Source: Flavobacteriales bacterium (lineage in GTDB: Bacteria > Bacteroidota > Bacteroidia > Flavobacteriales_D > Sanyastnellaceae). From it: a DNA stretch of 64,000 bases. The translations under genes and the position numbers were made by a program. Below the pieces are notes generated by a model. It was given only the letters and a program-made list of their open reading frames with translations, did not search any database and was not told the DNA's origin. Location: NCBI GenBank assembly GCA_044354975.1, contig JBIKZA010000001.1, positions 11,094-75,093 on the forward strand, written 5' to 3'. Positions 15,022 to 49,165 of the stretch are shown here, piece by piece. The stretch's first letter is position 1. Every line of letters starts with the position of its first letter.

Positions 15022-16343
15022 TGGCAGCGTCAGGGAAACAGAACTTACAACTCGACTGGGGCACTATTGCGCTCTACGGGACGTTGGTTTTGTTCGGATG
15101 GCTTTCTATTTATAGCGCTGCGTTTAATCCGCTACTGCCAAGTCCGTTCACGTTTTCCGAAGAGTACGGAAAACAGTTGGTATGGATAGGGGCTTGTATC
15201 TTTTTAATCGTAGTCATCCTTTATTTAGACGCGGAGGTGTTCAATAAACTAGCCGTTTACATTTACTTCTTTTTTGTGCTTTTGCTCATGCTCGTCTTGG
15301 TCATAGGAAAGGAAGTAAATGGAGCGAAGGCGTGGTTTGGAATTGGTGATTTTGGAATTCAGCCGAGTGAGTTTTCTAAAATTGGCGTCGGGCTATTTCT
15401 GTCCAAATTTATTTCCAGCTCCGGTTTGCAGTTGAAGAATTTGCGAATGCGTATTCAGGCTTTTGCAATCATTGGATTACCGGCGTTTTTGATTTTGCTT
15501 CAACCCGATGTGGGTTCGTTATTGACTTTCCTTGCTTTCATTTTGGTGATGTATCGTGAAGGGATGTCGGGCACTGTCCTGATCGCAGGATTTGCCAGTG
15601 TGGTCATTGGAACTTTAAGTATTGTTATTGGCGCGGGCAGAACGACTTACCCTTATTTCGGAGAGATGAGTTCTATTTGGACTTTTATTGTTTCCCTTTT
15701 CGCGTTATCAATTCTTGCTTTGATTTTCGTTCGGAATTTTGTTGTCCCACGATCAAGAAGATTGCTTTATTCTGTGGTTGTCATCTCGATGGTGCTAGCC
15801 TCGAGTCTAGCTTTTTCGATTAACTACATCGTAGATAACGTGCTTGAAAAACACCACAAAGAGCGTATTTACGTTATGCTTTCACTTCCGGTTGAACGAC
15901 AAGATGCGACCTACAATTCCGAGATGGCGAAAATTACAGTAGGCTCCGGGGGATTAATTGGAAGAGGGTTTCATCAAGGACCAATGACCCAAAATAATTA
16001 CGTGCCTGAGCAATGGACCGACTTTATTTTTAGTGCAGTCGCAGAAGAGTGGGGATTCCTTGGAAGTGTAACTGTAATTCTTATGTTCTTCACCCTTATA
16101 TACCGATTGGTGGTATTGGCAGAGCGGCAACGTTCTCAATTTTCTAGGGTGTACGGCTATTGCGTAGCAGCAATCATTTTTATGCACCTCCTCATTAATA
16201 TTGGAATGGTGCTCGGGTTAGCGCCTATTATTGGTATTCCTCTGCCCTTCTTTAGTTACGGCGGATCTTCGCTTATGGCGTTTACGATTCTACTCTTCAT
16301 TATGATTCGTTTGGACGCTGAGCGGCTCAGCATCTTTAGATGA
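15021..16343 (+). CDS. rodA: SEDS-family peptidoglycan polymerase RodA
   Basis: 440 aa FtsW/RodA/SpoVE-type polytopic protein; TAATG overlap with mrdA. Confidence 0.9.
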   Translation: MAASGKQNLQLDWGTIALYGTLVLFGWLSIYSAAFNPLLPSPFTFSEEYGKQLVWIGACIFLIVVILYLDAEVFNKLAVYIYFFFVLLLMLVLVIGKEVNGAKAWFGIGDFGIQPSEFSKIGVGLFLSKFISSSGLQLKNLRMRIQAFAIIGLPAFLILLQPDVGSLLTFLAFILVMYREGMSGTVLIAGFASVVIGTLSIVIGAGRTTYPYFGEMSSIWTFIVSLFALSILALIFVRNFVVPRSRRLLYSVVVISMVLASSLAFSINYIVDNVLEKHHKERIYVMLSLPVERQDATYNSEMAKITVGSGGLIGRGFHQGPMTQNNYVPEQWTDFIFSAVAEEWGFLGSVTVILMFFTLIYRLVVLAERQRSQFSRVYGYCVAAIIFMHLLINIGMVLGLAPIIGIPLPFFSYGGSSLMAFTILLFIMIRLDAERLSIFR

Positions 16344-16413
16344 TGACCCTTCGGGATGACCACTTCGTGGATGACGCTGCGCGATGACCCTTTGGGATGA
16401 CGCTGCGCGATGT
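16339..16413 (+). repeat. mini-hairpin array, ATGA linker (5 units)
   Basis: tga|ccc-ttc-ggg|atga|ccac-ttc-gtgg|atga|cgc-tgc-gcg|atga|ccc-ttt-ggg|atga|cgc-tgc-gcg|atg. Starts on the rodA stop codon. Confidence 0.85.
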
Positions 16414-16513
16414 AAGGCATAGTTAACATTTCAACGTTTGTAAGGTTTGTAAGAACGTTTTCTTCTGTTGTAACCTAATTTCTACTTTAGCGTAATATCG
16501 AATATACGCGCAC

Positions 16514-19500
16514 ATGAAATCTCTACACACATTATTCCTTTCAGTTTTACTTGCACTCACTTGCAGCTTAGCATTAGCAAATAATTCTTTTTTCATTGAA
16601 AACAAGGGGCAGGTAAAAAACGAAAAGGGGATTCCGGATCGCTCCGTATTGTATACATACGCGACTTCTGAAATGGATGTGTTCATTCGCAAGACAGGTT
16701 TAACCTATCAATTCAAGCGTTATAACAACGACGGGGTTTACGCGGAACGTGTAGACGTGAATTGGAAGGGGTGTTCTGAGGGCTCTGTTGCGAAAGGATT
16801 ACAAGAGTTGGGTTACACAGAGAATTATTTTGTTGATGGAAAATCAAATTCGGCAAACGCGTTTCAAGAAGTGCGCGTTTCGAATATTTATCCGGGCGTG
16901 GATTGGAGAATGTACATTACTGAAGCTGGATTGAAATACGAGTTCATTGCGGAAAGCGGCCAAGCTGCAAAACAAATTAGCATGCAAGTTGAAGGGGCGG
17001 AAGAATTGGAAAAGTGTTCCAACGGCAGCATTCGAATTAAAGGTGAAATGGGACAAGTGAGCGATGCGAAGCCGGTTTATTTCAATCAAGAAAAAAGTAT
17101 TGAAGGAAATTTTATTGTGAATGGAAAGTCAATTCAATTTGAAATTCCTTCCAACACCGTTGGTGCAATTGTTTTAGACCCAGAGGTTATTTGGACTTCT
17201 TACTACGGCGGGACAGGCCTAGATGATTCACGTGGAATTTTCACTGACGCGAATGGCGATTATTATTTGACAGGCGCCACCAATTCAACCACATTAATAT
17301 CATACTTGGGTTATCAAGGGTTATTGGGAGGGAGCAATGATGTGTATGTAGTGAAGTTCAACGCGTTGAATCAACGCTTGTGGGCAACATACTACGGCAG
17401 AACGGGTAACGATGTTGGAAACGATATTGTTGTTGATCCTTACGGAGGAATTTATGTAGCAGGAAGCACAAGTTCAATGTCCGCATTCGCGGTGAATAGT
17501 CAGCAGACTGTTTATGGTGGCGGCCCGAAAGATGGATTTGTTTTGAAATTGTTTCCAGACGGAACGTTGGAGTGGTGCTCTTATTACGGCGGCAGTGGCG
17601 ACGAGCAATTGACATCGTTGTCTGTCGGATTTCAAGGCGAGGTCTATTTCATTGGAGAAACGAGTTCGACTGATTTGATTACTTTGGACGCCTTGCAAAG
17701 TGCATATGGCGGAGGTGCAAGTGATTTTTATTTGGGGATGATAGATCCGGGAGGGTTCCTTCTTCGCTACACTTATTTTGGTGGCACCGGGGCGGAATTG
17801 GCGGGAGACCTTGTTGCGACAAGCGATATCAATTTGTATTTCACGGGAACTACAAGTTCTGCTGCAGGAATGGCTGCAGGTGGCGCACAGAACACATACG
17901 GCGGCGGGGCGTATGACGGCTTCTTTGCTAAGATAAACAGTGGGAATTTAATTGAATGGGCTTCCTACATAGGTGGAGCCAGTGAAGACAGAGCGGAAGC
18001 CATTCATGTTGCGGGCGACCAGCTTTACATAGTTGGAAAATCCGGCTCAATAAGTGGAATTTCTACCCCCGGTGCTGCGCAAGTGTTCAATGGAGGAGGA
18101 AGTTTCGACGGCTTCTTAGCTTCTTATATGATTGATGGAATGGTGAATTGGAAAACCTATTACGGCGGTTCTGGAAACGAATCGCTTTGGGGAGTTACAA
18201 CAGACGCTGCAGGAAGTGTTTTCATTACTGGGAATTCAACCTCTTCCAATATGGGAGATAATGGTTTTCAGAATGCCAATGGCGGATTAACCGACATTGT
18301 TTTTGCAGGATATTCTATTGATGGTATTCGTTATTGGAGTTCGTATTTAGGCGGAATCGCTGATGAGTCGGTGAGTGACCTTGTGATTAATTCAAATCAG
18401 GAAATGTATTTTGCTGGAAGTTCGGCATCTTCAAATCTTGCTGTAGGTGGGTACGAAGCCACGAACAATGGCGGTGGTGAAGCGTTCTTCGGGAAGTTGA
18501 AAAACTGCGATTATCCTTATTTAACCGTTCACATTACCGGCGACACTATATTCTGCGACGGTAAGTCTGCTATTTTATGCGCAGGTGGTGCCGATCATTT
18601 CCTGTGGTCAACAGGCGACACAACAGCGGCAATAGAAGTAGACGCGCCTATGGTTGTTTATCTTATTGGAACAAACACACCTGGCTGCAGCACACGCTCC
18701 GACGATTACACCTTTACCGTTTTGCCACAACCAACGATTAATGTAACTGCAGATGGTCCTTTAACGTTTTGTGGTGATGTTTCCGTAAATCTTACTGCCT
18801 CTGGAGGTATTGGCTATGAATGGAACAGTGGTCCAACAACGGAAACAATCACTGTTAATGAGTCTGGAAATTACGCGTGCACTGGAATAAATGAATTCGG
18901 GTGCGAAGGAAGTAGCAACCAGTTGAGTGTTGAAGTCTTCGATTTGCCAGAAGTTGCCATGGGACTTTCCACCGACAGTATTTGTATATCGGCCGATCCG
19001 GTGGGAATTGTAGGACTGCCATTGGGCGGCACTTATGTAGGAGATGGAATAGTTGGAAACTCAATTGACCCCGGTTTAGCTGGCGGTGGAGCGCACCAAG
19101 TTTATTACACATTTACAGATGCGAACGGTTGTTCGAATTCGTCTGATGTGTTCGACTATTTCGTGTTATTCGAGCCAACAGTTCTTTTCCTTTCGCAAGA
19201 CACGGTAATGGCTGGAGATCCTCCGGTTGAAATGACAGGAATTCCTTCAGGCGGATATTACACCGGGTTTGGGGTAAGCGGAAATTTATTTTATCCTGAA
19301 TTAGTAGCCCCAGGATTTTATCAGGTTACCTATAACTATGTAGACGATAATGGCTGTACCAATAGAGACACACAGGTTATTTATGTTTGTTGTGTGGGAA
19401 TAGATGAATTTGCATCGGTAGAACCGAAGTTATATCCGAATCCGACTGAGGGGTTGTTGAATTTCACTTTGGGAACTCATTCTGCCCGTGCGTATCGCAT

Positions 19501-19651
19501 TTATGATCTTTCGGGAAGGGTGGTTCAACAAGAAAATTTATTTTTAGAGCAAAGTTCTCTGAATGTTTCGAATTTGGCGAATGGTCAGTATTTACTGAGG
19601 TTTGAAGGCGATGAAGTCTTTATTCCGATTCCATTTTCCGTTTCGAAATAA
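16514..19651 (+). CDS. large secreted SBBP-type beta-propeller repeat protein with T9SS C-terminal sorting domain
   Basis: Signal peptide, many YYGG(T/S)G.D..... repeats, Cys-paired Ig-like modules and a C-terminal KLYPNPTEGLLNF.. Por tail. Confidence 0.8.
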   Translation: MKSLHTLFLSVLLALTCSLALANNSFFIENKGQVKNEKGIPDRSVLYTYATSEMDVFIRKTGLTYQFKRYNNDGVYAERVDVNWKGCSEGSVAKGLQELGYTENYFVDGKSNSANAFQEVRVSNIYPGVDWRMYITEAGLKYEFIAESGQAAKQISMQVEGAEELEKCSNGSIRIKGEMGQVSDAKPVYFNQEKSIEGNFIVNGKSIQFEIPSNTVGAIVLDPEVIWTSYYGGTGLDDSRGIFTDANGDYYLTGATNSTTLISYLGYQGLLGGSNDVYVVKFNALNQRLWATYYGRTGNDVGNDIVVDPYGGIYVAGSTSSMSAFAVNSQQTVYGGGPKDGFVLKLFPDGTLEWCSYYGGSGDEQLTSLSVGFQGEVYFIGETSSTDLITLDALQSAYGGGASDFYLGMIDPGGFLLRYTYFGGTGAELAGDLVATSDINLYFTGTTSSAAGMAAGGAQNTYGGGAYDGFFAKINSGNLIEWASYIGGASEDRAEAIHVAGDQLYIVGKSGSISGISTPGAAQVFNGGGSFDGFLASYMIDGMVNWKTYYGGSGNESLWGVTTDAAGSVFITGNSTSSNMGDNGFQNANGGLTDIVFAGYSIDGIRYWSSYLGGIADESVSDLVINSNQEMYFAGSSASSNLAVGGYEATNNGGGEAFFGKLKNCDYPYLTVHITGDTIFCDGKSAILCAGGADHFLWSTGDTTAAIEVDAPMVVYLIGTNTPGCSTRSDDYTFTVLPQPTINVTADGPLTFCGDVSVNLTASGGIGYEWNSGPTTETITVNESGNYACTGINEFGCEGSSNQLSVEVFDLPEVAMGLSTDSICISADPVGIVGLPLGGTYVGDGIVGNSIDPGLAGGGAHQVYYTFTDANGCSNSSDVFDYFVLFEPTVLFLSQDTVMAGDPPVEMTGIPSGGYYTGFGVSGNLFYPELVAPGFYQVTYNYVDDNGCTNRDTQVIYVCCVGIDEFASVEPKLYPNPTEGLLNFTLGTHSARAYRIYDLSGRVVQQENLFLEQSSLNVSNLANGQYLLRFEGDEVFIPIPFSVSK

Positions 19652-19728
19652 AAAAAATAAAGTTTTTTTGAGAAAAGTGTAACCTTTTTAGGTCGATAGG
19701 GGTAAAAGAAGCATAACCTATTTGACTT

Positions 19729-20226
19729 ATGAAAAACTCAATCACAATCTCCATCTTCGCAGCAGTTCTTTCTCTAAGCCTTGTGTCTTGTCAGAAAGAA
19801 TTCTACATGCCATCTGCACCGGTATCAGCAGCCGACACGACCACAACTGTTTCGAATTCAGAAATAACTGGCCCTACAGCTGTTTTAGGTGAAGATGTTG
19901 CTAAGTTGAACTTCGTATGGCTTCAGCCAGAAGGCTCAAACGCAAATCTTCAAGGGGTGAAGATTGAAATTGCAGACAAGAGTGGTCAAATCGTGTTTTC
20001 AGCAATAGATGTAATGGCAGCTGGTGACGATATGTTTCAGTGGTATCCTGGAATTATCCTTCAAGCAGACGAGTATACTTTCACCATGAAATCAGCGTCT
20101 GGCAACGTATTGAGTGTTTCAACACTAAATGTTGCAGAAGCTTTCCAACAAGACGAATACATTCACCAAGCAAACGGAGCGAAGTTTTTCCTTCAAATGA
20201 CTTGGGAAAAAGCTTCAGAAATATAA
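19729..20226 (+). CDS. hypothetical lipoprotein
   Basis: Signal peptide with lipobox LSLVSC; no recognisable family. Confidence 0.55.
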   Translation: MKNSITISIFAAVLSLSLVSCQKEFYMPSAPVSAADTTTTVSNSEITGPTAVLGEDVAKLNFVWLQPEGSNANLQGVKIEIADKSGQIVFSAIDVMAAGDDMFQWYPGIILQADEYTFTMKSASGNVLSVSTLNVAEAFQQDEYIHQANGAKFFLQMTWEKASEI

Positions 20227-20250
20227 GCTTAGGTTAGTTAGGTATGAGAC

Positions 20251-20276
20251 AACCCCTTCTCGCGAAGGGGTTTTTT
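20251..20276 (+). terminator. rho-independent terminator
   Basis: aaccccttc-tcgc-gaaggggtt hairpin followed by a T6 run. Confidence 0.8.
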
Positions 20277-25046: not shown

Positions 25047-25280
25047 TTGCTTTGCAAGGTTCTACGAAAGATGCAATTATAAGATGCAAGCAAGATTCTT
25101 CGAAAGATGTGTTACAAGATGCTCCGCAAGATTCTTCGAAAGATGTGTTACAAGATGCTCCGCAAGATTCTTCGCAAGATGTGTTACAAGATGCTCCGCA
25201 AGATTCTTCGAAAGATGCCTTCGGCAAGTATTTCGTTAGCGTAGCTTCTTTTGAAAAATCTTACGAAGGATCTTTCAACA
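25047..25280. repeat. mini-hairpin array, AGA linker (15 plus-oriented units incl. a 36-bp higher-order repeat x3, then about 2 degenerate inverted TCT units)
   Basis: aga|ttc-ttc-gaa|aga|tgt-gtt-aca|aga|tgc-tcc-gca| repeated. Starts 1 nt after the folA stop. Centre is cttttgaaaaatctt at 25248-25262. Confidence 0.9.
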
Positions 25281-25283
25281 AAA

Positions 25284-29211: not shown

Positions 29212-29997
29212 ATGAAACTAACGCTGGAAAAAGACGGGCGACGCTATTCATTTCAAACCGAAAAAGGAATGGACCTTAGCATTTCTATGAATCCAAATGG
29301 TCCGCGCGCTTGGTACGTAGCGCCTATGCGCATTGAACCCGTGCGCACTGAACAATTCTTGGGTTCTGTAGCCGAAGGAGGGGCAGTGAATTTTCGTGAT
29401 GTGTATTTTAATCCACATGGACACGGCACGCACACGGAGAATGTGGGACATATCATTGATACGGATTTCCCCGTGGTGAATAGCATTGGGTCTTCGCATT
29501 TTATGGCGAAGCTGATAACGGTGGAGTTGATGAAACAAGATGCTATGCAAGATTCTACGAAAGATGTTTCACAAGATGCTTCGCAAGGGGATTGGGTAGT
29601 TAACGAGCAAAGTCTGGAGGGTTTTGATTTGAAAGTTGAAGCGCTTATTATTCGCACAAAACCGAATGATCATTCGAAAGTGCAGAGACAATACTCAGGT
29701 ACGAATTTTCCTTATTTAACAATTGGAGCTATGCAGCGTATTGTTGATGCGGGTGTTCAGCATTTGCTCATTGACTTGCCCAGTGTAGATCGCGAGGAAG
29801 ATGGCGGAGCGTTGGAGGCACATCATTTGTTTTGGAATGTTCCGGCAGAGCCGAACTTTCAGAAAACCATTACAGAGTTGATTTACGTTCCAAATGAAAT
29901 TGCAGATGGGACTTATCTGTTGAATTTGCAAGTTTCAAATTTCGCTAACGATGCTGCTCCGAGTAGACCTATGCTTTTTGATCTAGCGGAAGAATAA
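29212..29997 (+). CDS. cyclase-family (kynurenine formamidase-like) protein carrying an in-frame repeat insertion
   Basis: HGHGTHTENVGH metal-site-like motif and family-like C-terminal half. Contains the AGA mini-hairpin units at 29538-29587. Confidence 0.65.
   Translation: MKLTLEKDGRRYSFQTEKGMDLSISMNPNGPRAWYVAPMRIEPVRTEQFLGSVAEGGAVNFRDVYFNPHGHGTHTENVGHIIDTDFPVVNSIGSSHFMAKLITVELMKQDAMQDSTKDVSQDASQGDWVVNEQSLEGFDLKVEALIIRTKPNDHSKVQRQYSGTNFPYLTIGAMQRIVDAGVQHLLIDLPSVDREEDGGALEAHHLFWNVPAEPNFQKTITELIYVPNEIADGTYLLNLQVSNFANDAAPSRPMLFDLAEE
29538..29587 (+). repeat. mini-hairpin array, AGA linker, 4 units, inside a CDS and in frame
   Basis: aga|tgc-tat-gca|aga|ttc-tac-gaa|aga|tgt-ttc-aca|aga|tgc-ttc-gca|ag, encoding QDAMQDSTKDVSQDASQ. 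Confidence 0.85.
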
Positions 29998-33751: not shown

Positions 33752-35665
33752 ATGAAACCATTCTGCGAAGATTTATTTGGGTACAAGCGCATTAAAACGA
33801 GCTCAGTAACCATTGGTGAATTAACCATGGGCGGCGACGCGCCCATTCGTGTGCAGTCAATGACCACGGCCGACACCATGAATACCGAAGCAACCGTTGC
33901 CGAGAGTATTCGCATGATTGAAGCCGGTTGTGAGTTGGTGCGTATTACAGCTCCAAGTAAAAACGAGGCTGAAAATCTTCGCAACATTCGCGAAGAACTT
34001 CAAAAAGCGGGTTTTAACATTCCGCTGGTTGCCGACATTCACTTCACTCCGAACGCCGCAGAGATTGCAGCGCGCATTGTAGAGAAGGTTCGTGTGAACC
34101 CGGGGAACTACGCAGATAAAAAGAAGTTTGAGGAAATTGTTTACACAGATGAATCTTACGCTGCTGAATTGAAACGCATTCGCGACCGATTCATTCCACT
34201 TGTGGAAATTTGCAAAGAACACGGAACAGCGATGCGCATTGGAACGAACCACGGTTCGCTTTCAGATCGCATTCTTAGTCGCTATGGTGACACCCCTGAA
34301 GGCATGGTGGAATCTGCCATGGAGTTCATCCGCATTTGTCTCGATTGCAATTACAAGAATTTGGTTATTTCCATGAAAGCGTCTAATCCGCAAGTGATGG
34401 TGCAAGCCTATCGTTTGTTGGTTCAAACACTTTTGGAAGCGGGCGAAGTTTTTCCATTGCACTTAGGAGTAACAGAGGCGGGCGATGGAGAAGATGGAAG
34501 AATTAAATCTGCTATTGGAATTGGCACTTTGTTGGAAGACGGCATTGGCGATACCGTTCGTGTTTCATTGACCGAAGCGCCGGAAGCAGAAATGCCTGTA
34601 GCGAAATTACTGGTCGATCGTTACGCGAATAGAACTCTGGGATTACATATTCCGGCGGAAGAAATTCCAATTGATTTTTTCTCTTATTCAAGAAGATACA
34701 CACACGAAGTTTTAAATATTGGGGGAAAGAATGTCCCGCGTGTATTTGCAGATTATTCGAACCGCGAGTCGATTACTGCGGCTTCACTATTCGCAGTGGG
34801 ATATGCCTATTCAATAGATATGGACAAGTGGAATTTGTCTGATTCGGCTTGTGATTATTTGTTTGTTGGAAAGAACACGGTAAATTTTGAAATTCCCGGA
34901 ACCCTTGGTGTTGTCATGGAACACGCAACATGGCTTCAACATAAAAATAGAGACCGTCATTATCCAGTTTTATTTGCAAGCGAATACATCCAACCGAATG
35001 AACGTTCGGGTGAGTTGAATTTTGTTGAAGTAGAATTGGAAAATTTAACAGAAGAATTTTTATCTGTGTTGAAGGCAGATTCAACGGTTGTGTTGTTGTT
35101 GAAGTCTTCGCATGAGTATGTTGTGCAGCATAGAAGAACAGCTATTTTCAAATTGATGAATCACGGAGTGAATTGTCCCGTAGTTCTTTCTTCCACCTAC
35201 AACATCGAAGAAGAAGCATACACACTTTATTCTTCAACCGACGTAGGAGCCTTGTTGCTAGATGGATTAGGCGATGGAGTTCTTATTTCAAGCAGTCAAT
35301 CTTCTTTGGCGAAATCGAATGCGATTGCATTTGGAATTCTTCAAGCAACGCGCACGCGTATTTCAAGAACTGAATATATTTCTTGTCCAAGTTGCGGAAG
35401 AACATTGTTCGACCTTCAAGAAACCACGGCGAAAATTCGTTCGCGCACTTCGCATTTGAAGGGCGTGAAGATTGGAATTATGGGATGTATTGTGAACGGT
35501 CCGGGAGAAATGGCAGATGCCGATTACGGTTATGTTGGAACAGGTGTAGGAAAGATTACACTTTACAAAGAAAAGAATGTGGTGAAGAAGAACATTGACG
35601 AAGCGGAAGCTGTCGATGAGCTTATTTCACTCATCAAGGAATATGGCGATTGGGTGGAACCCTGA
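33752..35665 (+). CDS. ispG: 4-hydroxy-3-methylbut-2-enyl diphosphate synthase (long form)
   Basis: 637 aa; GcpE N-terminal TIM-barrel motifs, an inserted domain, and C-terminal CPSCGR..GCIVNGPGE Fe-S motifs. Confidence 0.93.
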   Translation: MKPFCEDLFGYKRIKTSSVTIGELTMGGDAPIRVQSMTTADTMNTEATVAESIRMIEAGCELVRITAPSKNEAENLRNIREELQKAGFNIPLVADIHFTPNAAEIAARIVEKVRVNPGNYADKKKFEEIVYTDESYAAELKRIRDRFIPLVEICKEHGTAMRIGTNHGSLSDRILSRYGDTPEGMVESAMEFIRICLDCNYKNLVISMKASNPQVMVQAYRLLVQTLLEAGEVFPLHLGVTEAGDGEDGRIKSAIGIGTLLEDGIGDTVRVSLTEAPEAEMPVAKLLVDRYANRTLGLHIPAEEIPIDFFSYSRRYTHEVLNIGGKNVPRVFADYSNRESITAASLFAVGYAYSIDMDKWNLSDSACDYLFVGKNTVNFEIPGTLGVVMEHATWLQHKNRDRHYPVLFASEYIQPNERSGELNFVEVELENLTEEFLSVLKADSTVVLLLKSSHEYVVQHRRTAIFKLMNHGVNCPVVLSSTYNIEEEAYTLYSSTDVGALLLDGLGDGVLISSSQSSLAKSNAIAFGILQATRTRISRTEYISCPSCGRTLFDLQETTAKIRSRTSHLKGVKIGIMGCIVNGPGEMADADYGYVGTGVGKITLYKEKNVVKKNIDEAEAVDELISLIKEYGDWVEP

Positions 35666-35823
35666 CGCAGAGCGTAGATGCTTTGCAAGATTCCGTTGGA
35701 AAGATGTTGCACAAGATTCCGTTGGAAAGATGTTGCACAAGATTCCGGAGGAAAGATACTTCGCAAAAATTACCTTTTGAAAAATCTTGCATAGCATCTT
35801 GTGAAACATCTTACGAAGTATCT
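35666..35823. repeat. mini-hairpin array, AGA linker (about 8 plus-oriented units, centre, 3 inverted TCT units)
   Basis: aga|tgc-ttt-gca|aga|ttcc-gtt-ggaa|aga|tgt-tgc-aca|... cttttgaaaaatctt (35774-35788) ...tct|tgc-ata-gca|tct|tgt-gaa-aca|tct|tac-gaa-gta|tct. Spans exactly from the ispG stop to the purK stop. Confidence 0.9.
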
Positions 35824-36964
35824 AGGATACAACCCTTACTTCTTTCAAGAATCGTCTGGCAATATCCTTCGCGTCTTCTAGATTCGTGTTGCACACCGTA
35901 ATGTGTCCCATTTTACGGAAGGGTTTGGTGTCTTCCTTTCCATATAAATGAATATAAGCACCTTCGGTGTGAAGGACGTCTTCTATGTTTTCGTAGCGCG
36001 CTTTTCCTTCAAATCCTTTTTCACCCAAGAGGTTAATCATAACAGCTGGAGTGCGAAGTCCTGTGCTGCCTAACGGCATGTTCAAGATCGCACGAAGATG
36101 CATACCGTATTGCGAAACGAAGCATGCTTCAATGGTGTGGTGGCCGCTGTTGTGCGGACGAGGAGCGATTTCATTCACCAATAAATTTCCATCTTCGGTG
36201 AGGAATAATTCAATGGCTAATAAACCCACGTGTTCGAGTTTGTTGGCAATCTCGGTTGCGATTTTTTTCGCGTTGATTTCTATTTCAACGTTCACGTTGG
36301 CAGGAGAGAAAATGAATTCTACTAAGTTGGCTTCCGGATTGAATTCCATTTCCACCAAAGGAAAAGTAGCCAGTTCTCCGCTTTCATTTCGAGCAACAAT
36401 AACAGCCAGTTCTTTTACGAATGGAACGAATTCTTCCAATACGCTGGGCGCATTGAAGGCCGATTTGAATTCCGCTACCGTGCGAAGTGGAGTTACTCCT
36501 TTGCCGTCGTATCCGCCTTTGCGAAGCTTCTGCATGAACGATCCCTCATCTTTAAACAACATCGCATCTTCTGTATTAGCGATCAGGTGGAAAGGAGCCG
36601 TCGGAATGTTGTTCGCTGTGTAAAATTGTTTTTGAAGACCTTTGTCTTGAATGATGCGAAGGGCTTGTGGTGTTGGGAAAACTTTCTTTCCAAGTCTTTC
36701 CAATTCTTCGAGAGCTTCAATGTTCACGTGTTCAATTTCAATGGTCAGAACATCAACTGTTTTTCCGAAATCGAGTACGGTTTGATAGTCGTTAAAATTT
36801 CCAACAACGAAATTATTCGCAAGGTCAGCGCAAGGTGCATTTGAAGAAGGGTCTAAAACAGAGATATGAATATTGAAGTTAACGGCTTCTTGAATAAGCA
36901 TTCTTCCTAATTGTCCACCACCTAAAATTCCGAGTTTAGTGGTTAGGTCTATCGTGTGATTCAT
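35822..36964 (-). CDS. purK: 5-(carboxyamino)imidazole ribonucleotide synthase
   Basis: 380 aa ATP-grasp protein; N-terminal LGILGGGQLGRM and PurK-like sequence throughout. Confidence 0.92.
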   Translation of the reverse strand: MNHTIDLTTKLGILGGGQLGRMLIQEAVNFNIHISVLDPSSNAPCADLANNFVVGNFNDYQTVLDFGKTVDVLTIEIEHVNIEALEELERLGKKVFPTPQALRIIQDKGLQKQFYTANNIPTAPFHLIANTEDAMLFKDEGSFMQKLRKGGYDGKGVTPLRTVAEFKSAFNAPSVLEEFVPFVKELAVIVARNESGELATFPLVEMEFNPEANLVEFIFSPANVNVEIEINAKKIATEIANKLEHVGLLAIELFLTEDGNLLVNEIAPRPHNSGHHTIEACFVSQYGMHLRAILNMPLGSTGLRTPAVMINLLGEKGFEGKARYENIEDVLHTEGAYIHLYGKEDTKPFRKMGHITVCNTNLEDAKDIARRFLKEVRVVS

Positions 36965-39806: not shown

Positions 39807-40775
39807 ATGAAAAATATTGCAGTGGTTTGTGGGGGGTATAGTGGCGAGTCAGTTGTTTCTATGCGCAGCGCGAAGATGGTGATGGAGAATATTGATCGTT
39901 CGAAGTTCGAGCCCACGCAGATTGTGATTGAAGAAAAGCGTTGGTATGCGTTGGTGAACGAAACGGAAGTTGCAGTTGATCGCAATGATTTTTCAATAGT
40001 TGTAGATGGAACGAAAACCACGTTCGACGGGGTGTTCATGATTGTTCATGGTACACCAGGAGAGAATGGATTGCTGCAAGGATATTTCGATACGATTGGA
40101 ATAAAATACACGACAGGCGATGTCTTGAACATGGCGTTAACGTTCAATAAGAAAGCGACTACACGTACATTAGGTGCTATGGGTTATCGCGTTGCGCGTT
40201 CAATTGTTATTCGCAAGGAAGAAGAAATTACAGCAGCGGAAGTGGTTGCGAAAGTGGGTTTGCCTTGTTTCGTCAAACCGAATTGTGGTGGAAGCTCCAT
40301 TGGCACTTCGCGCGTGAATGAAGAGGGCGGAATTATGGAGGCTATTTCTCGCGCAAGAAATGAAGACGAAGACATTATTGTGGAAGAATTTATATCTGGA
40401 AGGGAAGTCACTTGTGGCGTTATTGTTATGAATGGAAAGCCAACGGCCTTGCCTGTTACAGAGATTGTAAGCGAGACGGAGTTTTTCGATTATCAAGCGA
40501 AGTACGAAGGGAAGAGCAAGGAGATTACTCCCGCTCCAATTAGTGAATTTCACTACGCGCGTGTTCAGGAATTGTCTGCTCGTATTTACACCGATTTAAA
40601 TTGTGGCGGAATGATCCGCGTAGACTTCTTGTTACCCGACGAAGAACCTTCTGTAATTGAAGTGAACACCGTACCTGGTTTCAGCGCAGCCTCTATTATT
40701 CCTCAGCAAGCCGCGGTTATTGGAATGAGTAAGATGGAGTTGATATCAACCGTACTGGCTTCAATCACTTTGTGA
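39807..40775 (+). CDS. ddl: D-alanine--D-alanine ligase
   Basis: 322 aa ATP-grasp protein; GGYSGESVVS, HGTPGENG and NTVPGF motifs. Confidence 0.93.
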   Translation: MKNIAVVCGGYSGESVVSMRSAKMVMENIDRSKFEPTQIVIEEKRWYALVNETEVAVDRNDFSIVVDGTKTTFDGVFMIVHGTPGENGLLQGYFDTIGIKYTTGDVLNMALTFNKKATTRTLGAMGYRVARSIVIRKEEEITAAEVVAKVGLPCFVKPNCGGSSIGTSRVNEEGGIMEAISRARNEDEDIIVEEFISGREVTCGVIVMNGKPTALPVTEIVSETEFFDYQAKYEGKSKEITPAPISEFHYARVQELSARIYTDLNCGGMIRVDFLLPDEEPSVIEVNTVPGFSAASIIPQQAAVIGMSKMELISTVLASITL

Positions 40776-40931
40776 TCAATCATCTTCGATGATCAATCTG
40801 ACTTGGTCAGATCAATCACTGCGTGATCAATTGCTCTGCAATCAATCCTACGGAGTAATCGGAACGATTGATCGCAACGCGATTGATTCGAAGAATTGAT
40901 CTGACGAAGTCAGATTCAGAAGTACTGATTC
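40761..40931. repeat. mini-hairpin array, ATCAAT linker (6 plus-oriented units, then about 6 inverted ATTGAT units)
   Basis: tcaat|cac-ttt-gtg|atcaat|catc-ttc-gatg|atcaat|ctgac-ttg-gtcag|atcaat|cac-tgc-gtg|atcaat|tgc-tct-gca|.. then tcg-gaa-cga|ttgat|cgc-aac-gcg|attgat|..|ctgac-gaa-gtcag|att|cag-aagta-ctg. The outer units lie inside the last codons of ddl and glyQS. Confidence 0.88.
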
Positions 40932-44193: not shown

Positions 44194-44276
44194 GGATTTG
44201 TTATTGCAGCAAAATTGAGGCGAAATGTTCCATATTCAAAAGGATTGCTTAAATTCGCCATGAAAATAATTCAATC

Positions 44277-44465: not shown

Positions 44466-44471
44466 GAAATA

Positions 44472-45479
44472 TTGGCTTCGGCCCACCTAAACATATTGAA
44501 ACCCCGCTGGTTCGAGAATTTTCGAATCGTTGGGGTTTTTCTTTTTCTTTTTTTTCTAGTTGGAAGTGGATCGTTCGCGCAGTTGGAAAATCGTTTGGGT
44601 TATTTCGAATTGGATCAAACACTGCAGACTACCACGGGCGAATTATCTGGAACGCTTACGGTTCCCATCTTGAAGGGAACCTTTCCGGTTGCCTTGATCA
44701 TAGCGGGTTCCGGACCTACAGACCGCAACGGGAACAACGCGCAAATGAAAAACAATTCATTGCTCCTTTTGGCGCATGAACTCGCTGCGCAAGGAATTGC
44801 ATCGCTTCGTTACGACAAGCGGGGCATTGGGAAGAGTGCTTCAGCAATGATCTCCGAAGAACAATTGCGTTTCGAGAATTATGTGGAAGATGCGAAGGCT
44901 TGGTCTGCTCAATTGAAAACCGATCCTCGTTTTGGAAAGCTCATTGTTATTGGACACAGCGAAGGATCGCTTGTTGGAATACTGGCCTGCGAGCAAGCCG
45001 ATGTTTTTGTTTCGCTAGCAGGCGCAGGAAGGTCCATTGATGTTATATTGAAGGAACAACTTGCTGTTCAGTTGAAAGGAAAGAAGAAACTTCTCCGCGC
45101 AGCGAATGAGGGCCTTTCGAAGCTCAAAGAAGGCAAGTTGGTTGAAAACACACCGGCAGAGTTGTTTGGCTTGTTTAGCCCCTCTGTTCAGCCTTACATG
45201 ATGTCTTGGATGAAATATGATCCGGCGGTTGAAATTTCGAAATTGAAAATTCCGATTGTCATTGTCCAAGGCACTACCGACCTTCAGGTTCAAGTGAAAG
45301 ACGCTGAATTGCTTCATGCCGCTTCCGTAGGTTCTCGATACATTTTAATTGAAGGCATGAATCACATTTTCAAAATGGCTCCTTCAGATCGAGAGAAAAA
45401 TATTGAGACGTATAGCAAGCCGGAATTACCAATTGTACAAGAATTGATTCGGGCAATATGTAATTCTGTTCAGGGCTGA
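44472..45479 (+). CDS. alpha/beta hydrolase
   Basis: Signal/TM segment, nucleophile elbow VIGHSEGS and C-terminal GMNH. The TTG start is uncertain. Confidence 0.75.
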   Translation: MASAHLNILKPRWFENFRIVGVFLFLFFLVGSGSFAQLENRLGYFELDQTLQTTTGELSGTLTVPILKGTFPVALIIAGSGPTDRNGNNAQMKNNSLLLLAHELAAQGIASLRYDKRGIGKSASAMISEEQLRFENYVEDAKAWSAQLKTDPRFGKLIVIGHSEGSLVGILACEQADVFVSLAGAGRSIDVILKEQLAVQLKGKKKLLRAANEGLSKLKEGKLVENTPAELFGLFSPSVQPYMMSWMKYDPAVEISKLKIPIVIVQGTTDLQVQVKDAELLHAASVGSRYILIEGMNHIFKMAPSDREKNIETYSKPELPIVQELIRAICNSVQG

Positions 45480-45491
45480 ATGAAAAAACAC

Positions 45492-47315
45492 TTATTTATC
45501 GGAAATTTTTACAATACGCCTGGGGTTTGAATTTGAGACGATTGAGAAAAAATAAACACCATCAGTCAGGTTTTGCAATTCAAATGTGTTGCTAAGCGTT
45601 TGAATAACTCCAGACTTAACGGCTCTTCCCGCGGAGTCGCGAATGAAAAAAGACTTGCCTAGGTCACCCATTGTGACATTAACAGCTAGATTATCATTGA
45701 ACGGATTAGGGTACAAGGAGAAGGTGGCTGAGGGGTCGTCTTCAATTTCGATTGTGCTCGTTAGCGTCAAGGTTGTTATGAGATTGCAACCGTCGGCGCT
45801 CTTTTCGGTGAACGTATAAATTCCCGGAGACAAAAGGGTGTCTCCATTAAATATATATGGGAATACAGCGGTTGAAACATTTACACTTGTTGAAGAGCTG
45901 AAATTGAGGGTCAAATCAAGATGAATTACAGAGTCGCAACCTAAATTATTTGTGGTAACAAATACAGCGGTGTTGTTAGATGTGATGTAGGTGACCCCAT
46001 CTATCCACGTATAACTGTCGCAAGCAGAGAGACTGTCTATACTTGTTTGGGGAAGTATGACGGTAAGATAAAGCGTGTCAACAACGTTAAGCGGCGTTGT
46101 ATATGTGTACACTCCAGAACTTTGGTAATTCTGCCCATTCCACAAATAAGGAAGTGTATTAGAGCAAATTGAATCATAGGTTGTTAATGGGAGACCCGAA
46201 CAATTAACTAGGTTAAGTATGTTTGAATTTAGCAAAAGTCCATTACCGAGGTTCCCCGCCCCATTAGCCCCGCATGCCCAAATGCTATTATCGTTTTTTA
46301 AAGTAACCGAACGTAAAAAACTGGCACTAATAGAAGTCCATAAACTACCGACCCCGAGACTAACGGGGATGTTAGAATCTGTGTTCGTTCCGTTTCCGAG
46401 CTCACCCGCTGGGTTTCTGCCCCAAGACCACATACTACCGTCGTTTCTCAACCCAAGAGAATGCTGATAACCGGCACTTATTTTAGACCAATTCGATACC
46501 CCGGGAATTTGAACAGGGATAAAACTGTCCGTGTTGGTACCGTCACCAAACTGCCCATACAGATTACTTCCCCATGCCCACAATGTCCCGTCGTTTTTGA
46601 CAGCCATACAATGAAACACCCCAGAGGCAATGTCGGTCCAGACACCTGACAAGATTTGAGTTGGAGTATTAACAGGTCCAAAAAAGATCGGAGAAATAGC
46701 TTGCTGACCCTCCAAATTTATACCCCAAGACCAAACGGACCCATCATTTTTTATAGCAAGAGAATGGTAACCCCCTCCGTTGATTTTAAACCAATCTACG
46801 GCATTGCCTATTTGCGTCGGGATTGTTTTCGTTATGAAGGTGCCGTCTCCTAATTCTCCACTTAAGTTATTGCCCCATGCCCACAATTCGTTATTTACCG
46901 TGAGAGCCAAACTATGATATAATCCAGGGCTTGCATTTAACCAATTTGTTGCTGATCCTATTTGAACAGGAATGTTTTTATTGATCAACGTCCCATCACC
47001 AAGCTGTCCCGAGGTGTTTTGACCCCATGCCCAAAGCGTTCCGTCAGTTTTAATAGCAACGGAGTGATGATAGCCAGCACTTATGCTAGCCCAATTGTTT
47101 CCAACACCAATTTGAATAGGGGTATACTTGTCGATCAATGTTCCATCGCCCAATTGCCCGTATTGATTACTTCCCCATGCCCACAATGTCCCATCATTTT
47201 TTATAGCCAATGAGAAAAAACCACCAGAGGTCAGACTTTGCCAACATTGGCAATTCCCGGTTAAAGGAAGTGTTAAGCCGCAAATTAAGAGCAGCGAAAA
47301 AACAAATTTACCCAT
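45492..47315 (-). CDS. RCC1-repeat (beta-propeller) secreted protein with T9SS C-terminal sorting domain
   Basis: Signal peptide, about 7 repeats of ..DGT(L/V)W(A/S)WG.N..GQLGDGT.., and a Por tail FSLYPNPFNDNL.. Confidence 0.85.
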   Translation of the reverse strand: MGKFVFSLLLICGLTLPLTGNCQCWQSLTSGGFFSLAIKNDGTLWAWGSNQYGQLGDGTLIDKYTPIQIGVGNNWASISAGYHHSVAIKTDGTLWAWGQNTSGQLGDGTLINKNIPVQIGSATNWLNASPGLYHSLALTVNNELWAWGNNLSGELGDGTFITKTIPTQIGNAVDWFKINGGGYHSLAIKNDGSVWSWGINLEGQQAISPIFFGPVNTPTQILSGVWTDIASGVFHCMAVKNDGTLWAWGSNLYGQFGDGTNTDSFIPVQIPGVSNWSKISAGYQHSLGLRNDGSMWSWGRNPAGELGNGTNTDSNIPVSLGVGSLWTSISASFLRSVTLKNDNSIWACGANGAGNLGNGLLLNSNILNLVNCSGLPLTTYDSICSNTLPYLWNGQNYQSSGVYTYTTPLNVVDTLYLTVILPQTSIDSLSACDSYTWIDGVTYITSNNTAVFVTTNNLGCDSVIHLDLTLNFSSSTSVNVSTAVFPYIFNGDTLLSPGIYTFTEKSADGCNLITTLTLTSTIEIEDDPSATFSLYPNPFNDNLAVNVTMGDLGKSFFIRDSAGRAVKSGVIQTLSNTFELQNLTDGVYFFSIVSNSNPRRIVKISDK

Positions 47316-47324
47316 GAGACTAAG

Positions 47325-47798
47325 TTATGAAATCTTTCTTTCGTTGGGAGACATTTTCTCCAACCCCTGAAAGAAATTGCGAATCACCTGATTGTTGCAT
47401 TCGACATACTGTCGTTGCGTGGGGCTGCGAAAGAAAGCACTGAGTTCGTGCTTGCTCATTTTCATTTCGGCAAGCGACAAGATTTGAATAATATCCTCGT
47501 CAATTAAATTCAGCGCTATGCGCATCTTTCGGAAGATGAGATTATTCGTCAAGCGTTTCTCTGGAACCGGCAACGGACCGTCTTTTCGTCCGCGTTTATG
47601 AATGATAAATCCGTTTAGAAAAATGGAAAGCATCTCATCATTAATATCGAGATACTCTTCGTGATCTTCTTTCTTCAACCAATCACTCACATCGGATCGA
47701 GTAACCATAACATCTGTCAAAGCGAAAATGTCTATCATCTGCTGATCAGAGAAGTCATAAATAAATCGAATGCGACGGAAGATGCTGTTGTTGGTCAT
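47325..47798 (-). CDS. DUF1456 (YehS-like) protein
   Basis: 157 aa; two tandem halves resembling E. coli YehS (..NSIFRRIRFIYDF.. / ..NNLIFRKMRIALNL..). Confidence 0.8.
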   Translation of the reverse strand: MTNNSIFRRIRFIYDFSDQQMIDIFALTDVMVTRSDVSDWLKKEDHEEYLDINDEMLSIFLNGFIIHKRGRKDGPLPVPEKRLTNNLIFRKMRIALNLIDEDIIQILSLAEMKMSKHELSAFFRSPTQRQYVECNNQVIRNFFQGLEKMSPNERKIS

Positions 47799-47831
47799 GA
47801 GGTTAATTATTGTTCTGCGAACTTACAAACA

Positions 47832-47996
47832 GAATGCGTTGCGAAGGCGAATGGCTTTGCGAAGGCAACAAGCATTGCGAGGGTGAATTCTTCACGAGGG
47901 TCCTTCGGACGAGGGTTGCAAGCAACGAGGGTCTTCGACTTTCGCAATTACGCATCCCGATAGCTATCGGGAGGAATAAAGCCGAAGGTTTTCAAT
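47832..47996. repeat. mini-hairpin array, GAAG/GAGG linker (plus-oriented) followed by inverted GGAAT-type units
   Basis: gagg|gtgaa-ttc-ttcac|gagg|gtcc-ttc-ggac|gagg|gttgc-aa-gcaac|gagg|gtc-ttc-gac| then cccgatagctatcggg and aaagcc-gaa-ggtttt. Confidence 0.85.
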
Positions 47997-48147
47997 CAGG
48001 GAGTCTGTCGTATTCTTCTAAAATTTCTCTACTTGACTCGGATACCAACTGCGATTCATTCACCAATTGATTTCGCAAGCTATCTCGATTGCGATTCTCT
48101 TTTTCCAAAAAAACGTGGTTGTTAAGTTTTCGAGAACGATTTTTCAT
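47992..48147 (-). CDS. possible small ORF (51 aa), hypothetical
   Basis: ATG..TGA read by hand (MKNRSRKLNNHVFLEKENRNRD..EEYDRLPD). Its stop lies inside an inverted array unit, as at the other arrays. Below the ORF-track cut-off. Confidence 0.25.
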   Translation of the reverse strand: MKNRSRKLNNHVFLEKENRNRDSLRNQLVNESQLVSESSREILEEYDRLPD

Positions 48148-48189
48148 GGAACAAAAATAAGATTTGCTAGTGAACTTTGTTATTGGATA

Positions 48190-48252
48190 ATCATAAAATA
48201 GGAATTACGAATCCCGATAGCCATCGGGAGGAATAAAGCCGGAGGTTTTCAA
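48190..48252 (-). repeat. isolated copy of the GGAAT-type unit pair
   Basis: ggaattacgaatcccgatagccatcgggaggaataaagccggaggtttt is near-identical to 47945-47995. Confidence 0.8.
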
Positions 48253-48349
48253 AGTTATGCGTAATAATCTCAACAATAACAGTCATTACAGAAGATTCAA
48301 CGCATAAGCGTTTCTTGACTTCCTCAAGACTTATTCTTCTTTTTGCTGG

Positions 48350-48787
48350 ATGGAAGGAAAAGAAATTTACCATTTTTGGTATTTTGATGATAGGTACTTT
48401 ATTAATTGCCCAACGAAATCAGGTTGGATAATTAAAAGTATTTTATTCAATAAGCTTGACGAAGAGTGTTTATTCAATTTAGCTCTTTTTGATTATTTAC
48501 CCGAAGAAAAAACATGGTCCGACACCAATAGAAGTCAACCGAATAAACTTACAATGCTGTTTTTTACGATTAGTGAAATTGTTTTAGATTTTTTGAATAA
48601 TCACCCCGAAGCTGTAGTTTCTTTTCAAGGTAATACTCAGAGTAAATCAAGACTTTACAGCATTTTCATTTCTCATCACTTAGATTTCATTGCTGATAAG
48701 TTTCAGGTGCTTGGTGAAACTGAGAATGAAATTGAAAGGTTTCAAGCCAATAAAAAGTATTTAACAATATTCATTCTGAGGAAATAA
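48350..48787 (+). CDS. hypothetical protein (resembles a small Bacteroidota family I recall as DUF6934; unverified)
   Basis: 145 aa; C-terminal pattern ..FQGNTQSKSRLYSIFISHHLDFIADKFQVLG..; A+T-rich. Confidence 0.5.
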   Translation: MEGKEIYHFWYFDDRYFINCPTKSGWIIKSILFNKLDEECLFNLALFDYLPEEKTWSDTNRSQPNKLTMLFFTISEIVLDFLNNHPEAVVSFQGNTQSKSRLYSIFISHHLDFIADKFQVLGETENEIERFQANKKYLTIFILRK

Positions 48788-48804
48788 ATCAATAAATTAG
48801 ACTA

Positions 48805-48969
48805 ATGGAAAAAACGTCATTACAAAATAGCACCCCAATCCCTGCAGAGGTTATTTCAACGCCTATTCCCACTTCCGAAAAATTTCAGGAAGCGAAAAAA
48901 AGATTGCCAGAAACACTGGCAAAACTTAAAGCTTTTAATGAAAAGCAAAAGCTTGAGCAGAAGAGTTAG
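48805..48969 (+). CDS. possible small ORF (54 aa), hypothetical
   Basis: MEKTSLQNSTPIPAEV..KLKAFNEKQKLEQKS read by hand. Its stop codon is the first nt of the GAAT array. Confidence 0.3.
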   Translation: MEKTSLQNSTPIPAEVISTPIPTSEKFQEAKKRLPETLAKLKAFNEKQKLEQKS

Positions 48970-49165
48970 AATGTCTTCGACGAATGTGCAAGCACGAATG
49001 TTGCAGGGCAACGAATGTTCTCTGAACGAATGCCTGCGGCGAATGTCTTCGACTGTCATTCAACAACGCAGTTCTAATTACGAAGTAGGAATTATGAAAT
49101 AGGAATTACTTAGTTCCAATTACGCAGTAGGAATAAAACCGAAGGTTTTCCAATAACGCAGTTAA
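48969..49165. repeat. mini-hairpin array, GAAT linker (6 plus-oriented units) then inverted GGAAT/CCAAT-linked units (about 6)
   Basis: gaat|gtc-ttc-gac|gaat|gtgc-aa-gcac|gaat|gttgc-agg-gcaac|gaat|gttc-tct-gaac|gaat|gcc-tgc-ggc|gaat|gtc-ttc-gac ... aat|tac-gaa-gta|ggaat|tat-gaa-ata|ggaat|..|aaaacc-gaa-ggtttt|ccaat|aac-gca-gtt. The last unit overlaps the rlmF stop. Confidence 0.88.

Follow-up and report, generated by a model that had tools for sequence, protein, structure and literature searches.

Linker-spaced mini-hairpin arrays in freshwater Flavobacteriales: a candidate family of DNA-level, hypervariable dispersed repeats

A 64-kb stretch of a Flavobacteriales genome (contig JBIKZA010000001.1 of assembly GCA_044354975.1, positions 11,094 to 75,093), referred to below as the window, raises the question of what short tandem arrays of perfect mini-hairpins are doing beside its stop codons: are they signals read in the transcript, or repeats maintained in the DNA itself? 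A first-pass annotation of the window had described arrays in which a constant short linker alternates with a mini-palindrome, and had anchored them on stop codons in the orientation of the upstream gene. The repeat family proved to be real and far beyond chance, and the observations assembled here cover its architecture, its dispersal among loci, its turnover among strains, its insertion into coding sequences and its strict Watson–Crick pairing. From these patterns we infer how the units may be copied and maintained, and what role they might have in RNA. All coordinates are on the scale of the window unless a locus label (L and a number) is given.

Twelve half-arrays were located between positions 16331 and 49161. 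Their unit grammar consists of a constant linker of 2–6 nt and a palindrome that pairs from the linker to a loop of 3 nt, rarely 4 nt. The units measure 7–17 nt, and their stems are perfect while differing between units of the same array. When the sequence was cut at the proposed linkers, nearly all pieces were palindromic. Pairing from linker to loop (3–4 nt) was complete in 36 of 43 distinct interior units, compared with a mean of 0.86 and a maximum of 5 fully paired units in 5000 within-unit shuffles; counted from the unit ends, there were 132 pairs in the real units and 16.6 in the shuffled ones. A blind chain finder, set to report at least three perfect hairpins with one identical spacer, returned 11 chains in the window and 0–2 per shuffle in 20 Markov shuffles. 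The common linker-plus-mini-palindrome design proposed at first pass was thus borne out, as was the claim that stems vary around an invariant linker and still remain self-complementary.

The linkers fall into the families AGA/AGG (AGR), ATGA, CA (within ATCAAT), GAAT, GARG and ATTCC. Within a family the first stem base is constant: T...A for AGA/AGG, C...G for ATGA, and G...C for GAAT and GARG. The AGR family has a period of 12 nt, and the other families follow the same hairpin grammar with periods of 13–19 nt. ATCAAT, initially taken as a linker in its own right, is more plausibly a CA linker flanked by stems that end in AT...AT. Tandem Repeats Finder reported arrays at 16342–16412, 25054–25228, 29536–29587, 35686–35823, 40761–40831, 47839–47880 and 49076–49109, with higher-order periods of 26 and 36 nt and matches of 86–95%. 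An Rfam search of the 64-kb window gave only two tRNAs at the gathering threshold and no array match, and a literature search yielded no description of such arrays, the searchable literature being limited and earlier descriptions being possible. With no named family matched, the class remains as unfamiliar as it had first appeared.

The pairing is unusually strict. In the AGR family 259 of 264 variable stem pairs were Watson–Crick, with no G:T and no A:C pair; the five other mismatches were transversion-type or chimeric. The remaining families contributed 163 Watson–Crick pairs and no wobble. Overall, wobble was absent among ~430 stem pairs, bulges were not seen, and pairing always reached the minimal triloop. 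The loops vary freely (14 variants on the TGC stem), and such strict stems beside free loops indicate that stems are purged or corrected quickly, without wobble intermediates. Template switching is documented to make and repair perfect stems in one step (PMC8794818). The loops also show a compositional bias: among 58 distinct units, 24 had TNC and 5 had GNA, and the closing pair was C:G in 49 of 70 cases. Where a TNC loop is closed by C:G, the complementary strand reads C-GNA-G, a motif also present in the highly stable DNA mini-hairpin GCGAAGC (PMC13037366).

Comparison with strains and sister species (ispG nucleotide identity 84–92%) revealed rapid turnover. The ATGA-family array after rodA (16331–16412, + strand) has a single orientation and the units CATCTTTAGATG, CCCTTCGGG, CCACTTCGTGG, CGCTGCGCG, CCCTTTGGG and again CGCTGCGCG; the rodA stop TGA (16341–16343) belongs to its first linker. 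It is absent at the same site in L258 (RodA 89% identical), L259 and L260, where the flanks are otherwise collinear, which points to a recent insertion placed precisely after the last sense codon and before the stop. Its boundaries at the stop codon are clean, with no obvious target duplication. Between ispG and purK, an AGA-family → half (35665–35768, + strand) starts with the hairpin ACGCAGAGCGT on the final base of the ispG stop (35665), and a ← half (35769–35836, − strand) ends with the hairpin GTATCTAGGATAC, which covers the purK stop (35822–35824). A 26-nt block is present or missing here among strains, and the whole array is missing in L135 and L136, leaving a gap of 8 nt; because these two nest among array-bearing relatives, their state reflects loss.

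The AGR-family array between folA and yjbR consists of a → half (25047–25231, + strand) that begins 1 nt past the folA stop (25046) and contains a 36-nt higher-order repeat made of TTCTTCGAA, TGTGTTACA and TGCTCCGCA, and of a ← half (25236–25283, − strand) that adjoins the yjbR stop (25284). The − strand units of the latter are TTTTTCAAA and TCCTTCGTA, and other strains carry TACTTCGTA in place of TCCTTCGTA. Between fixed flanking anchors the folA spacer measures 253, 301 or 337 nt depending on the strain. The array is kept in all sister species, which differ in arm lengths, in AGA or AGG linkers and in the inverted centre, and within arrays the linkers switch between AGA and AGG in concert. 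In L258 the same gap holds a one-orientation ATGA-family array, as opposed to the AGR family in the window, L133, L135 and L137. Public gene calls downstream of folA (L001–L005, e.g. L001 10516–10806) place open reading frames (ORFs) of 84–96 aa across the array; these are almost certainly artefacts, since the 12-nt repeat is stop-free.

A CA-linker module separates ddl and glyS. Its → half (40762–40846, + strand) has stems of 5–7 bp and a first hairpin ATCACTTTGTGAT that includes the ddl stop (40773–40775); a centre without strand assignment, CCTACGGAGTAATCGGAACG (40847–40866), leads to the ← half (40867–40917, − strand), which ends at the glyS stop (40916). In the close relative L261 this centre has the opposite orientation to that in the window, and that of the folA/yjbR module is likewise inverted between relatives. 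Taken over the strains compared, copy number changed in steps of 12, 26, 36 and 48 nt. In several cases the first hairpin takes up existing gene-end sequence: ACGCAGAG+CGT at ispG, GTAT+CTAGGATAC at the purK stop, and TACAC...GTGTA at the folA stop in L135 and L137, where it is reached via synonymous codons. The last 4–5 residues of Ddl differ in close strains (P0136 vs P0141), reading ASITL* or EHCV* (window 40760–40775). As the ddl gene end runs into the first hairpin, arrays can be said to rewrite C-terminal tails.

The arrays are not confined to gene ends. The AGR-family (AGA) array at 29536–29590 (+ strand; units TGCTATGCA, TTCTACGAA, TGTTTCACA and TGCTTCGCA) had been placed behind a small ORF, whereas it lies in frame within a kynurenine-formamidase-like cyclase gene (29212–29997, 261 aa), where it encodes QDAMQDSTKDVSQDASQ. 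Among the 120 closest homologs, the cyclase is 253–312 aa long, with lengths that differ mostly in steps of 4 aa and only within the array segment; between strains with near-identical flanks the array is almost wholly replaced. Two repeat types occur in this protein, QD[AS]x.KDVx and the 16-aa QDLPQDLSQNLETGAS. The DNA of the 16-aa type is built of flipped units whose linkers are CCT/TCT and whose loops are GCA, so a → ← module can exist inside a gene. An AlphaFold2 model of the cyclase had a mean predicted local distance difference test (pLDDT) score of 45.7, too poor to place the insertion, and a sequence search of solved structures with the cyclase gave no match.

At least six other genes carry AGR arrays in frame as variable QDxx repeats, and four of the genes encode core metabolic enzymes. 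Such arrays were found in conserved regions of an amino-acid kinase, shikimate dehydrogenase, Ppx/GppA and phosphoglucomutase, as in the cyclase, and further in a PMT_2 protein and a type IX secretion system (T9SS) protein. The single-orientation coding arrays examined were all in the sense QDxx frame, and length polymorphism was observed in 5/5 array-bearing genes that had been sampled more than once. Residues within these repeats are correlated: K invariably comes after Ser, and Q after Ala or Val.

A small, shared set of units (TGCTTCGCA, TTCTTCGAA, TGTTGCACA, TGTTTCACA and others), together with the unit order TGC-TTC-TGT, occurs at three loci of the window and in at least 15 distinct metagenomic regions with GC-contents of 39–45%. 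These regions comprise arrays from a metagenome scan and two loci from a scan of representative genomes; both scans used an AAGAT-period pattern, which for the genomes was AAGAT-N7 repeated four times. The genome scan gave two true arrays among the 120 matches listed, both in freshwater Flavobacteriales metagenome-assembled genomes (MAGs), the other 118 being plain 12-nt tandem repeats; in the metagenome scan, 24 among the 123 matches listed carried variable hairpins, and at least three further matches look real. The central unit ACGCGAAGCGT recurs as a module centre in either orientation, and ATGA- and CA-family arrays at other loci have hairpins such as CCCTTCGGG, CCACTTCGTGG, CACACTTTGTGTG and CCGCTTCGCGG in common. 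Such sharing of units, order and hairpins identifies the arrays as homologous copies, not independent inventions, and means that most of their variety was inherited or copied, not re-evolved in each array. The covariation argument of the first-pass annotation therefore stands in so far as stems are self-complementary, and overstates the number of independent events.

The lineage involved appears to be Crocinitomicaceae-like. Homologs of RodA and Ddl are labelled Crocinitomicaceae or Flavobacteriales bacterium, which outweighs the label 'Sediminibacterium' on one cyclase homolog; JGI and ENA metagenome assemblies contain identical proteins, as does an NCBI 'Bacteroidota bacterium' MAG. One of the two array-bearing MAGs of the genome scan (L040) comes from a lake time series; for the samples behind the window itself, the sample numbers suggest a freshwater origin.

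Flanking genes in the window were assigned with Pfam as rodA, folA, yjbR, a radical-SAM HemN-like gene, the cyclase, ispG, purK, ddl, class-II GlyRS, DUF1456, DUF6934 and rlmF; several type IX secretion proteins are also encoded there. Ten half-arrays adjoin stop codons, with a linker-to-stop distance of 0–3 nt in 8/10 and ~10 nt in the yjbR and rlmF halves. The proposed closeness to stop codons is accordingly real, although the tie is not strict given the arrays that lie in frame within coding sequence. Arrays fill each of the four convergent gaps in the window that exceed 50 nt, and the other convergent pairs, which have none, abut or overlap.

Several array blocks crowd the region before rlmF. 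A GAAG/GAGG-family array (47832–47945, + strand) adjoins the 5' end of the − strand gene DUF1456. It makes up the → half of a → ← module whose other half is the ATTCC-linker hairpins TCCCGATAGCTATCGGGA and AAAACCTTCGGCTTT (47946–47995, − strand); these come immediately after the stop codon of a questionable 51-aa ORF on the − strand. A GAAT(G)-family array follows at 48967–49058 (+ strand); it starts earlier than first reported, at 48967–48973, and the TAG that ends a 54-aa ORF (48805–48969) overlaps its first linker. The ATTCC-linker array at 49070–49161 (− strand; GGAAT on the + strand) precedes the rlmF stop (49162) and has TTC loops on the − strand. We also noted a 50-nt direct repeat (47946–47995 and 48203–48252, 94% identical) with the hairpins TCCCGATAGCTATCGGGA and AAAGCCGAAGGTTTT joined by a GGAAT linker, and a partial third copy of it at 49129–49153.

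Orientation with the upstream gene holds for the half that touches a stop codon: in a hand tally over the window and related loci, including L040, L139 and L258, this half was sense-oriented in ~14/15 cases, the exception being the L194 array, which is antisense to both neighbouring genes. The mid-array flip, attributed at first to convergent genes, has another basis. Modules of the → ← type occur in co-directional gaps (L139 5740–6010, L028, window 47832–47995) and inside genes (the L135 cyclase, L143), and the convergent gap at folA in L258 holds a one-orientation array; the flip is a property of the module, not of convergent genes. The plus-oriented GAGG units at 47832, listed at first pass as an exception to the orientation rule, are confirmed in their orientation and reread as the → half of a module. 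The window is rearranged over 45492–49160 compared with L261 (Ddl 91% identical), and this probably explains the exception. In L261 the + strand carries DUF1456, which converges with rlmF and overlaps it; the window shows DUF1456 in inverted orientation, with an RCC1/T9SS gene, DUF6934, two small ORFs and three array blocks in between. The idea that sense orientation supplies stop codons was rejected, with 24 stops in sense and 33 in antisense over 876 nt.

Some observations lie outside the arrays. The tandem repeat CCACCGCCA / CCGCCA at 8070–8117, within an ORF at 7725–8630, resembles ordinary coding repeats. Two paralogous intergenic elements of ~115 nt (57470–57600 and 59195–59320, both on the − strand) are 79% identical and share a long closing helix with 3–4 compensatory pair changes; they gave no Rfam match even at an E-value of 1, and may represent a structured RNA that has escaped annotation, or a leader, upstream of genes on the − strand. 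In L263 (Ddl 77% identical; 3434–4206), a Y1 transposase gene at 3553–4044 (− strand) near purK is flanked on both sides by ~100-nt direct repeats with the perfect 3-nt-loop hairpins GCTCGC-TCT-GCGAGC and CCCCCAGC-ATA-GCTGGGGG, an arrangement like that of IS200 and of REP-associated tyrosine transposases (RAYTs; REP, repetitive extragenic palindromic). In the more distant relative L260, a truncated IS200/RAYT-type Y1 remnant (...HIHILC...FYWQDGYGAFSV...) lies between two genes at 20063–20254 (− strand), and no mini-hairpin arrays were found in that 21-kb locus.

Could the arrays act in RNA? They might be functional elements of the 3' untranslated region (3'-UTR), serving as U-tract-independent or bidirectional terminators, as REP-style barriers to 3' exonucleases, or as multi-site platforms for an RNA-binding protein that recognises a purine linker plus a pyrimidine loop; we regard this as unlikely. 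Linkers are indeed purine-rich and loops pyrimidine-rich on the mRNA-like strand, the half that touches the stop is sense-oriented (window arrays; L040, L139, L258), arrays fill 4/4 convergent gaps of the window longer than 50 nt, and those at folA and ispG are retained across species. The stems of the ATGA and CA families, with 4–7 bp including GC pairs, would be stable in RNA. Three two-armed modules were folded, and they pair arm against arm: ddl/glyS reached −70.1 kcal/mol (z = −7.7) and the two halves at ispG/purK formed one long hairpin of −47.7 kcal/mol (z = −3.45), so that long stable hairpins arose in 2/3, the folA module giving z = −0.8. The single array at rodA, however, is no more stable as RNA than its shuffles (z = +0.8), and the 3-bp AGR hairpins are thermodynamically marginal. 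Wobble is usual in selected RNA helices, and not one G:U was found among the ~430 stem pairs. The arrays at rodA and ispG/purK are dispensable in close relatives, identical units lie inside coding sequence, where a 3'-UTR role is impossible, and the L194 array is antisense to both its neighbours. U-tracts are missing from the arrays, within which a terminator scan gave one weak 6-bp match (48999), while canonical hairpin and T-tract terminators exist elsewhere in the window (20251, 50223, 52814 and 61348). Intrinsic (rho-independent) terminators were ruled out for want of a U-tract, and a Rho loading site of 12-nt spaced YC dimers was set aside by reasoning, as the arrays are not G-poor and their palindromy would be left unexplained. 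The canonical terminators elsewhere, the missing U-tract and the array-free convergent genes that abut or overlap together argue that arrays are not required as terminators.

Two further explanations place the cause in an enzyme or in the protein. A dedicated enzyme working on single-stranded DNA hairpins, of the Y1/HUH RAYT/IS200–IS605 type or a nuclease combined with fold-back synthesis, could mobilise or generate the units in a miniature analogue of REP elements and bacterial interspersed mosaic elements (BIMEs); it would recognise tag plus hairpin and insert beside purine-rich tags such as stop codons. We consider it quite unlikely. The tetranucleotide tag plus hairpin recalls the GTAG/CGTC-tagged REPs (PMC3733652), the rodA insertion is clean at the stop codon without obvious target duplication, first hairpins recruit existing gene-end sequence (ACGCAGAG+CGT, GTAT+CTAGGATAC, TACAC...GTGTA), and relatives do carry Y1 transposases, an intact 163-aa PF01797 gene in L263 and the remnant in L260. 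No Y1/HUH gene was present among the window ORFs scanned, though, and tblastn with the L260 fragment found no other copy in the window and 1.86 Mb of loci (L263 was not included and its gene was not used as query). The hairpins on either side of the L263 transposase have no sequence in common with array units, stem differences from unit to unit do not fit sequence-specific recognition, and the polymorphisms are block duplications and deletions typical of slippage. It is very improbable that the AGR family is primarily a coding tetrapeptide repeat, [QK]D[ASV]x, whose intergenic copies decayed or spilled over and whose palindromy follows from codon choice. The 12-nt period would suit this, and many AGR arrays are in frame, with all single-orientation coding arrays in the same QDxx frame, but residue correlations match stem complementarity exactly without an evident protein rationale. 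The families with periods of 13–19 nt break the reading frame and obey the same grammar all the same; the hairpin constraint also holds in the ATGA and CA families, which are never in coding sequence at the loci examined, and intergenic arrays are perfect, not decayed.

The explanation we prefer, with a probability of about one half, is that the arrays constitute a lineage-specific, DNA-level superfamily of dispersed hypervariable minisatellites, comparable to REP/BIME elements or Rickettsia palindromic elements (RPEs), in freshwater, Crocinitomicaceae-like Flavobacteriales. Strict Watson–Crick stems, free loops, weak RNA folding and the loop bias together favour maintenance at the DNA level. 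The repeats would be self-propagating, with multi-unit blocks copied between loci, and arrays would grow and shrink by slipped-strand mispairing in register with the higher-order repeats. Inverted arms of a module may recombine and flip its centre. Insertions would survive only where they are tolerated, that is, flush with stops in 3' gaps or, for the 12-nt AGR units, where exposed protein segments can take them in frame. Replication-associated fold-back or template switching, not selection for RNA pairing, could uphold the perfect palindromes, and units forming stable single-stranded DNA mini-hairpins might be amplified preferentially. Where both arms are present, either transcript could fold into a long hairpin, and a transcript-end structure could arise as a by-product with a secondary role.

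Several points weigh against this explanation. A purely DNA-level model does not predict the sense bias of the stop-touching half (~14/15), and the account of that bias through the supply of stop codons failed (24 sense vs 33 antisense). Arrays persist at the same gene ends across species (~85% ispG nucleotide identity; folA in all, ispG/purK in 3/4), which could reflect function, and the long stable hairpins of 2/3 folded two-armed modules (z = −7.7 and −3.5; folA −0.8) could be selectable. Loop-inversion pairs, in which the same stem carries an inverted loop as a signature of template switching, were not enriched (2 vs 1.1 expected), and 3-bp stems are short for known quasi-palindrome correction. 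Neither a mobilising enzyme nor a copying event was observed in the window and the sampled loci, and the census covers the 64-kb window and ascertained loci. A bolder proposal, which we hold to be a long shot, is an undescribed DNA-writing activity that adds tag plus perfect mini-palindrome, or else a set of natural MS2-like multi-site landing pads. DNA writing could be done by a hairpin-specific single-strand nuclease, a transposase or a fold-back (snap-back) polymerase reaction, which would add units at purine-rich tags by stop codons and write variable tetrapeptide linkers into housekeeping enzymes; a landing pad would be read by a protein through linker, closing pair and triloop. Either form would account for the sense bias, which plain slippage does not.

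Dispersed palindromic repeats have been best studied in Proteobacteria and Rickettsia. If the DNA-level minisatellite explanation is right, abundant freshwater Flavobacteriales own a repeat class with a grammar of constant linker plus perfect triloop palindrome in tandem. Four-residue modules gained and lost inside conserved enzymes would let protein length vary quickly and provide a ready strain marker for time series from lakes, and the combination of Watson–Crick-only stems with freely mutating loops offers a test bed for template switching, as opposed to RNA selection, as the origin of hairpins. In practical terms, the arrays generate spurious ORF calls, and because several of them lie at the ends of short metagenome contigs, they may also break assemblies.

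Among known systems, the resemblance to REP/BIME elements and RPEs suggested by the first-pass annotation holds. REP elements often lie within a few nucleotides of stop codons. Like them, the array units are dispersed palindromes at gene 3' ends and between convergent genes, with inverted copies in clusters, a short constant tag beside the hairpin, and presence or absence between close relatives. Array units are nonetheless 7–17 nt, perfect and variable in stem, whereas REPs are imperfect palindromes of 20–40 nt with conserved sequence; they are joined head-to-tail by linkers of 2–6 nt with at most one flip, as opposed to alternating REPs. The arrays have no GTAG or CGTC tag, their linkers being ATGA, AGA/AGG, CA (ATCAAT), GAAT, GARG and ATTCC, and they also occur within genes, in contrast to the strictly extragenic REPs. 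A RAYT gene is flanked by its own REPs, while the hairpins around the Y1_Tnp gene of L263 are unrelated to array units at the sampled loci. RPEs are likewise palindromic selfish repeats, found in frame in housekeeping genes and in intergenic DNA, and they add peptide segments that proteins tolerate. They differ in being single elements of ~100–150 bp with one long stem, compared with tandem units of 12–19 nt, in lacking hypervariable copy number, and in belonging to another host lineage.

Plain minisatellites, or variable number tandem repeats (VNTRs), share with the arrays the head-to-tail order, the fast gain and loss of copies (12, 26, 36 and 48 nt) and the higher-order periodicity. As in VNTRs and the in-frame repeats of Borgs (PMC9879509), the periods within genes are divisible by three and the resulting protein segments are variable and probably disordered. 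VNTR units are copies of one another, however, whereas neighbouring array units differ and still obey the grammar of linker, palindrome and 3-nt centre. In CRISPR arrays, constant repeats of 23–47 nt alternate with unique spacers of similar size; here the constant part is 2–6 nt, and the variable part, of 7–17 nt, is self-complementary and drawn from a shared repertoire. The TAACTGA or short tandemly repeated repetitive (STRR) heptamers of Beggiatoaceae, Cyanobacteria and some Bacteroidetes are also short intergenic tandems of patchy distribution, but they are plain heptamer direct repeats without hairpin units, placed mostly just upstream of start codons, and were ruled out as the identity of the arrays (PMC4679880). 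PARCEL palindromic coding repeats were also dismissed, as that name describes a different thing. Template-switch (quasi-palindrome) mutagenesis in the Ripley model has the same one-step perfect arms and strict Watson–Crick pairing without wobble intermediates (PMC8794818); it is a mutational process, not a repeat family, and is not known to generate tandem arrays or to work on stems of 3 bp. Organelle palindromes (fungal mitochondrial double-hairpin elements, GC clusters and the Volvox type) are, like the array units, very short hairpin repeats that spread in large numbers through intergenic DNA, may be present or absent among close relatives and are considered mobile and recombinogenic (PMC7218506), but they are organellar, mostly interspersed and conserved in stem within a family, and thus distinct from the linker-spaced tandem arrays described here.

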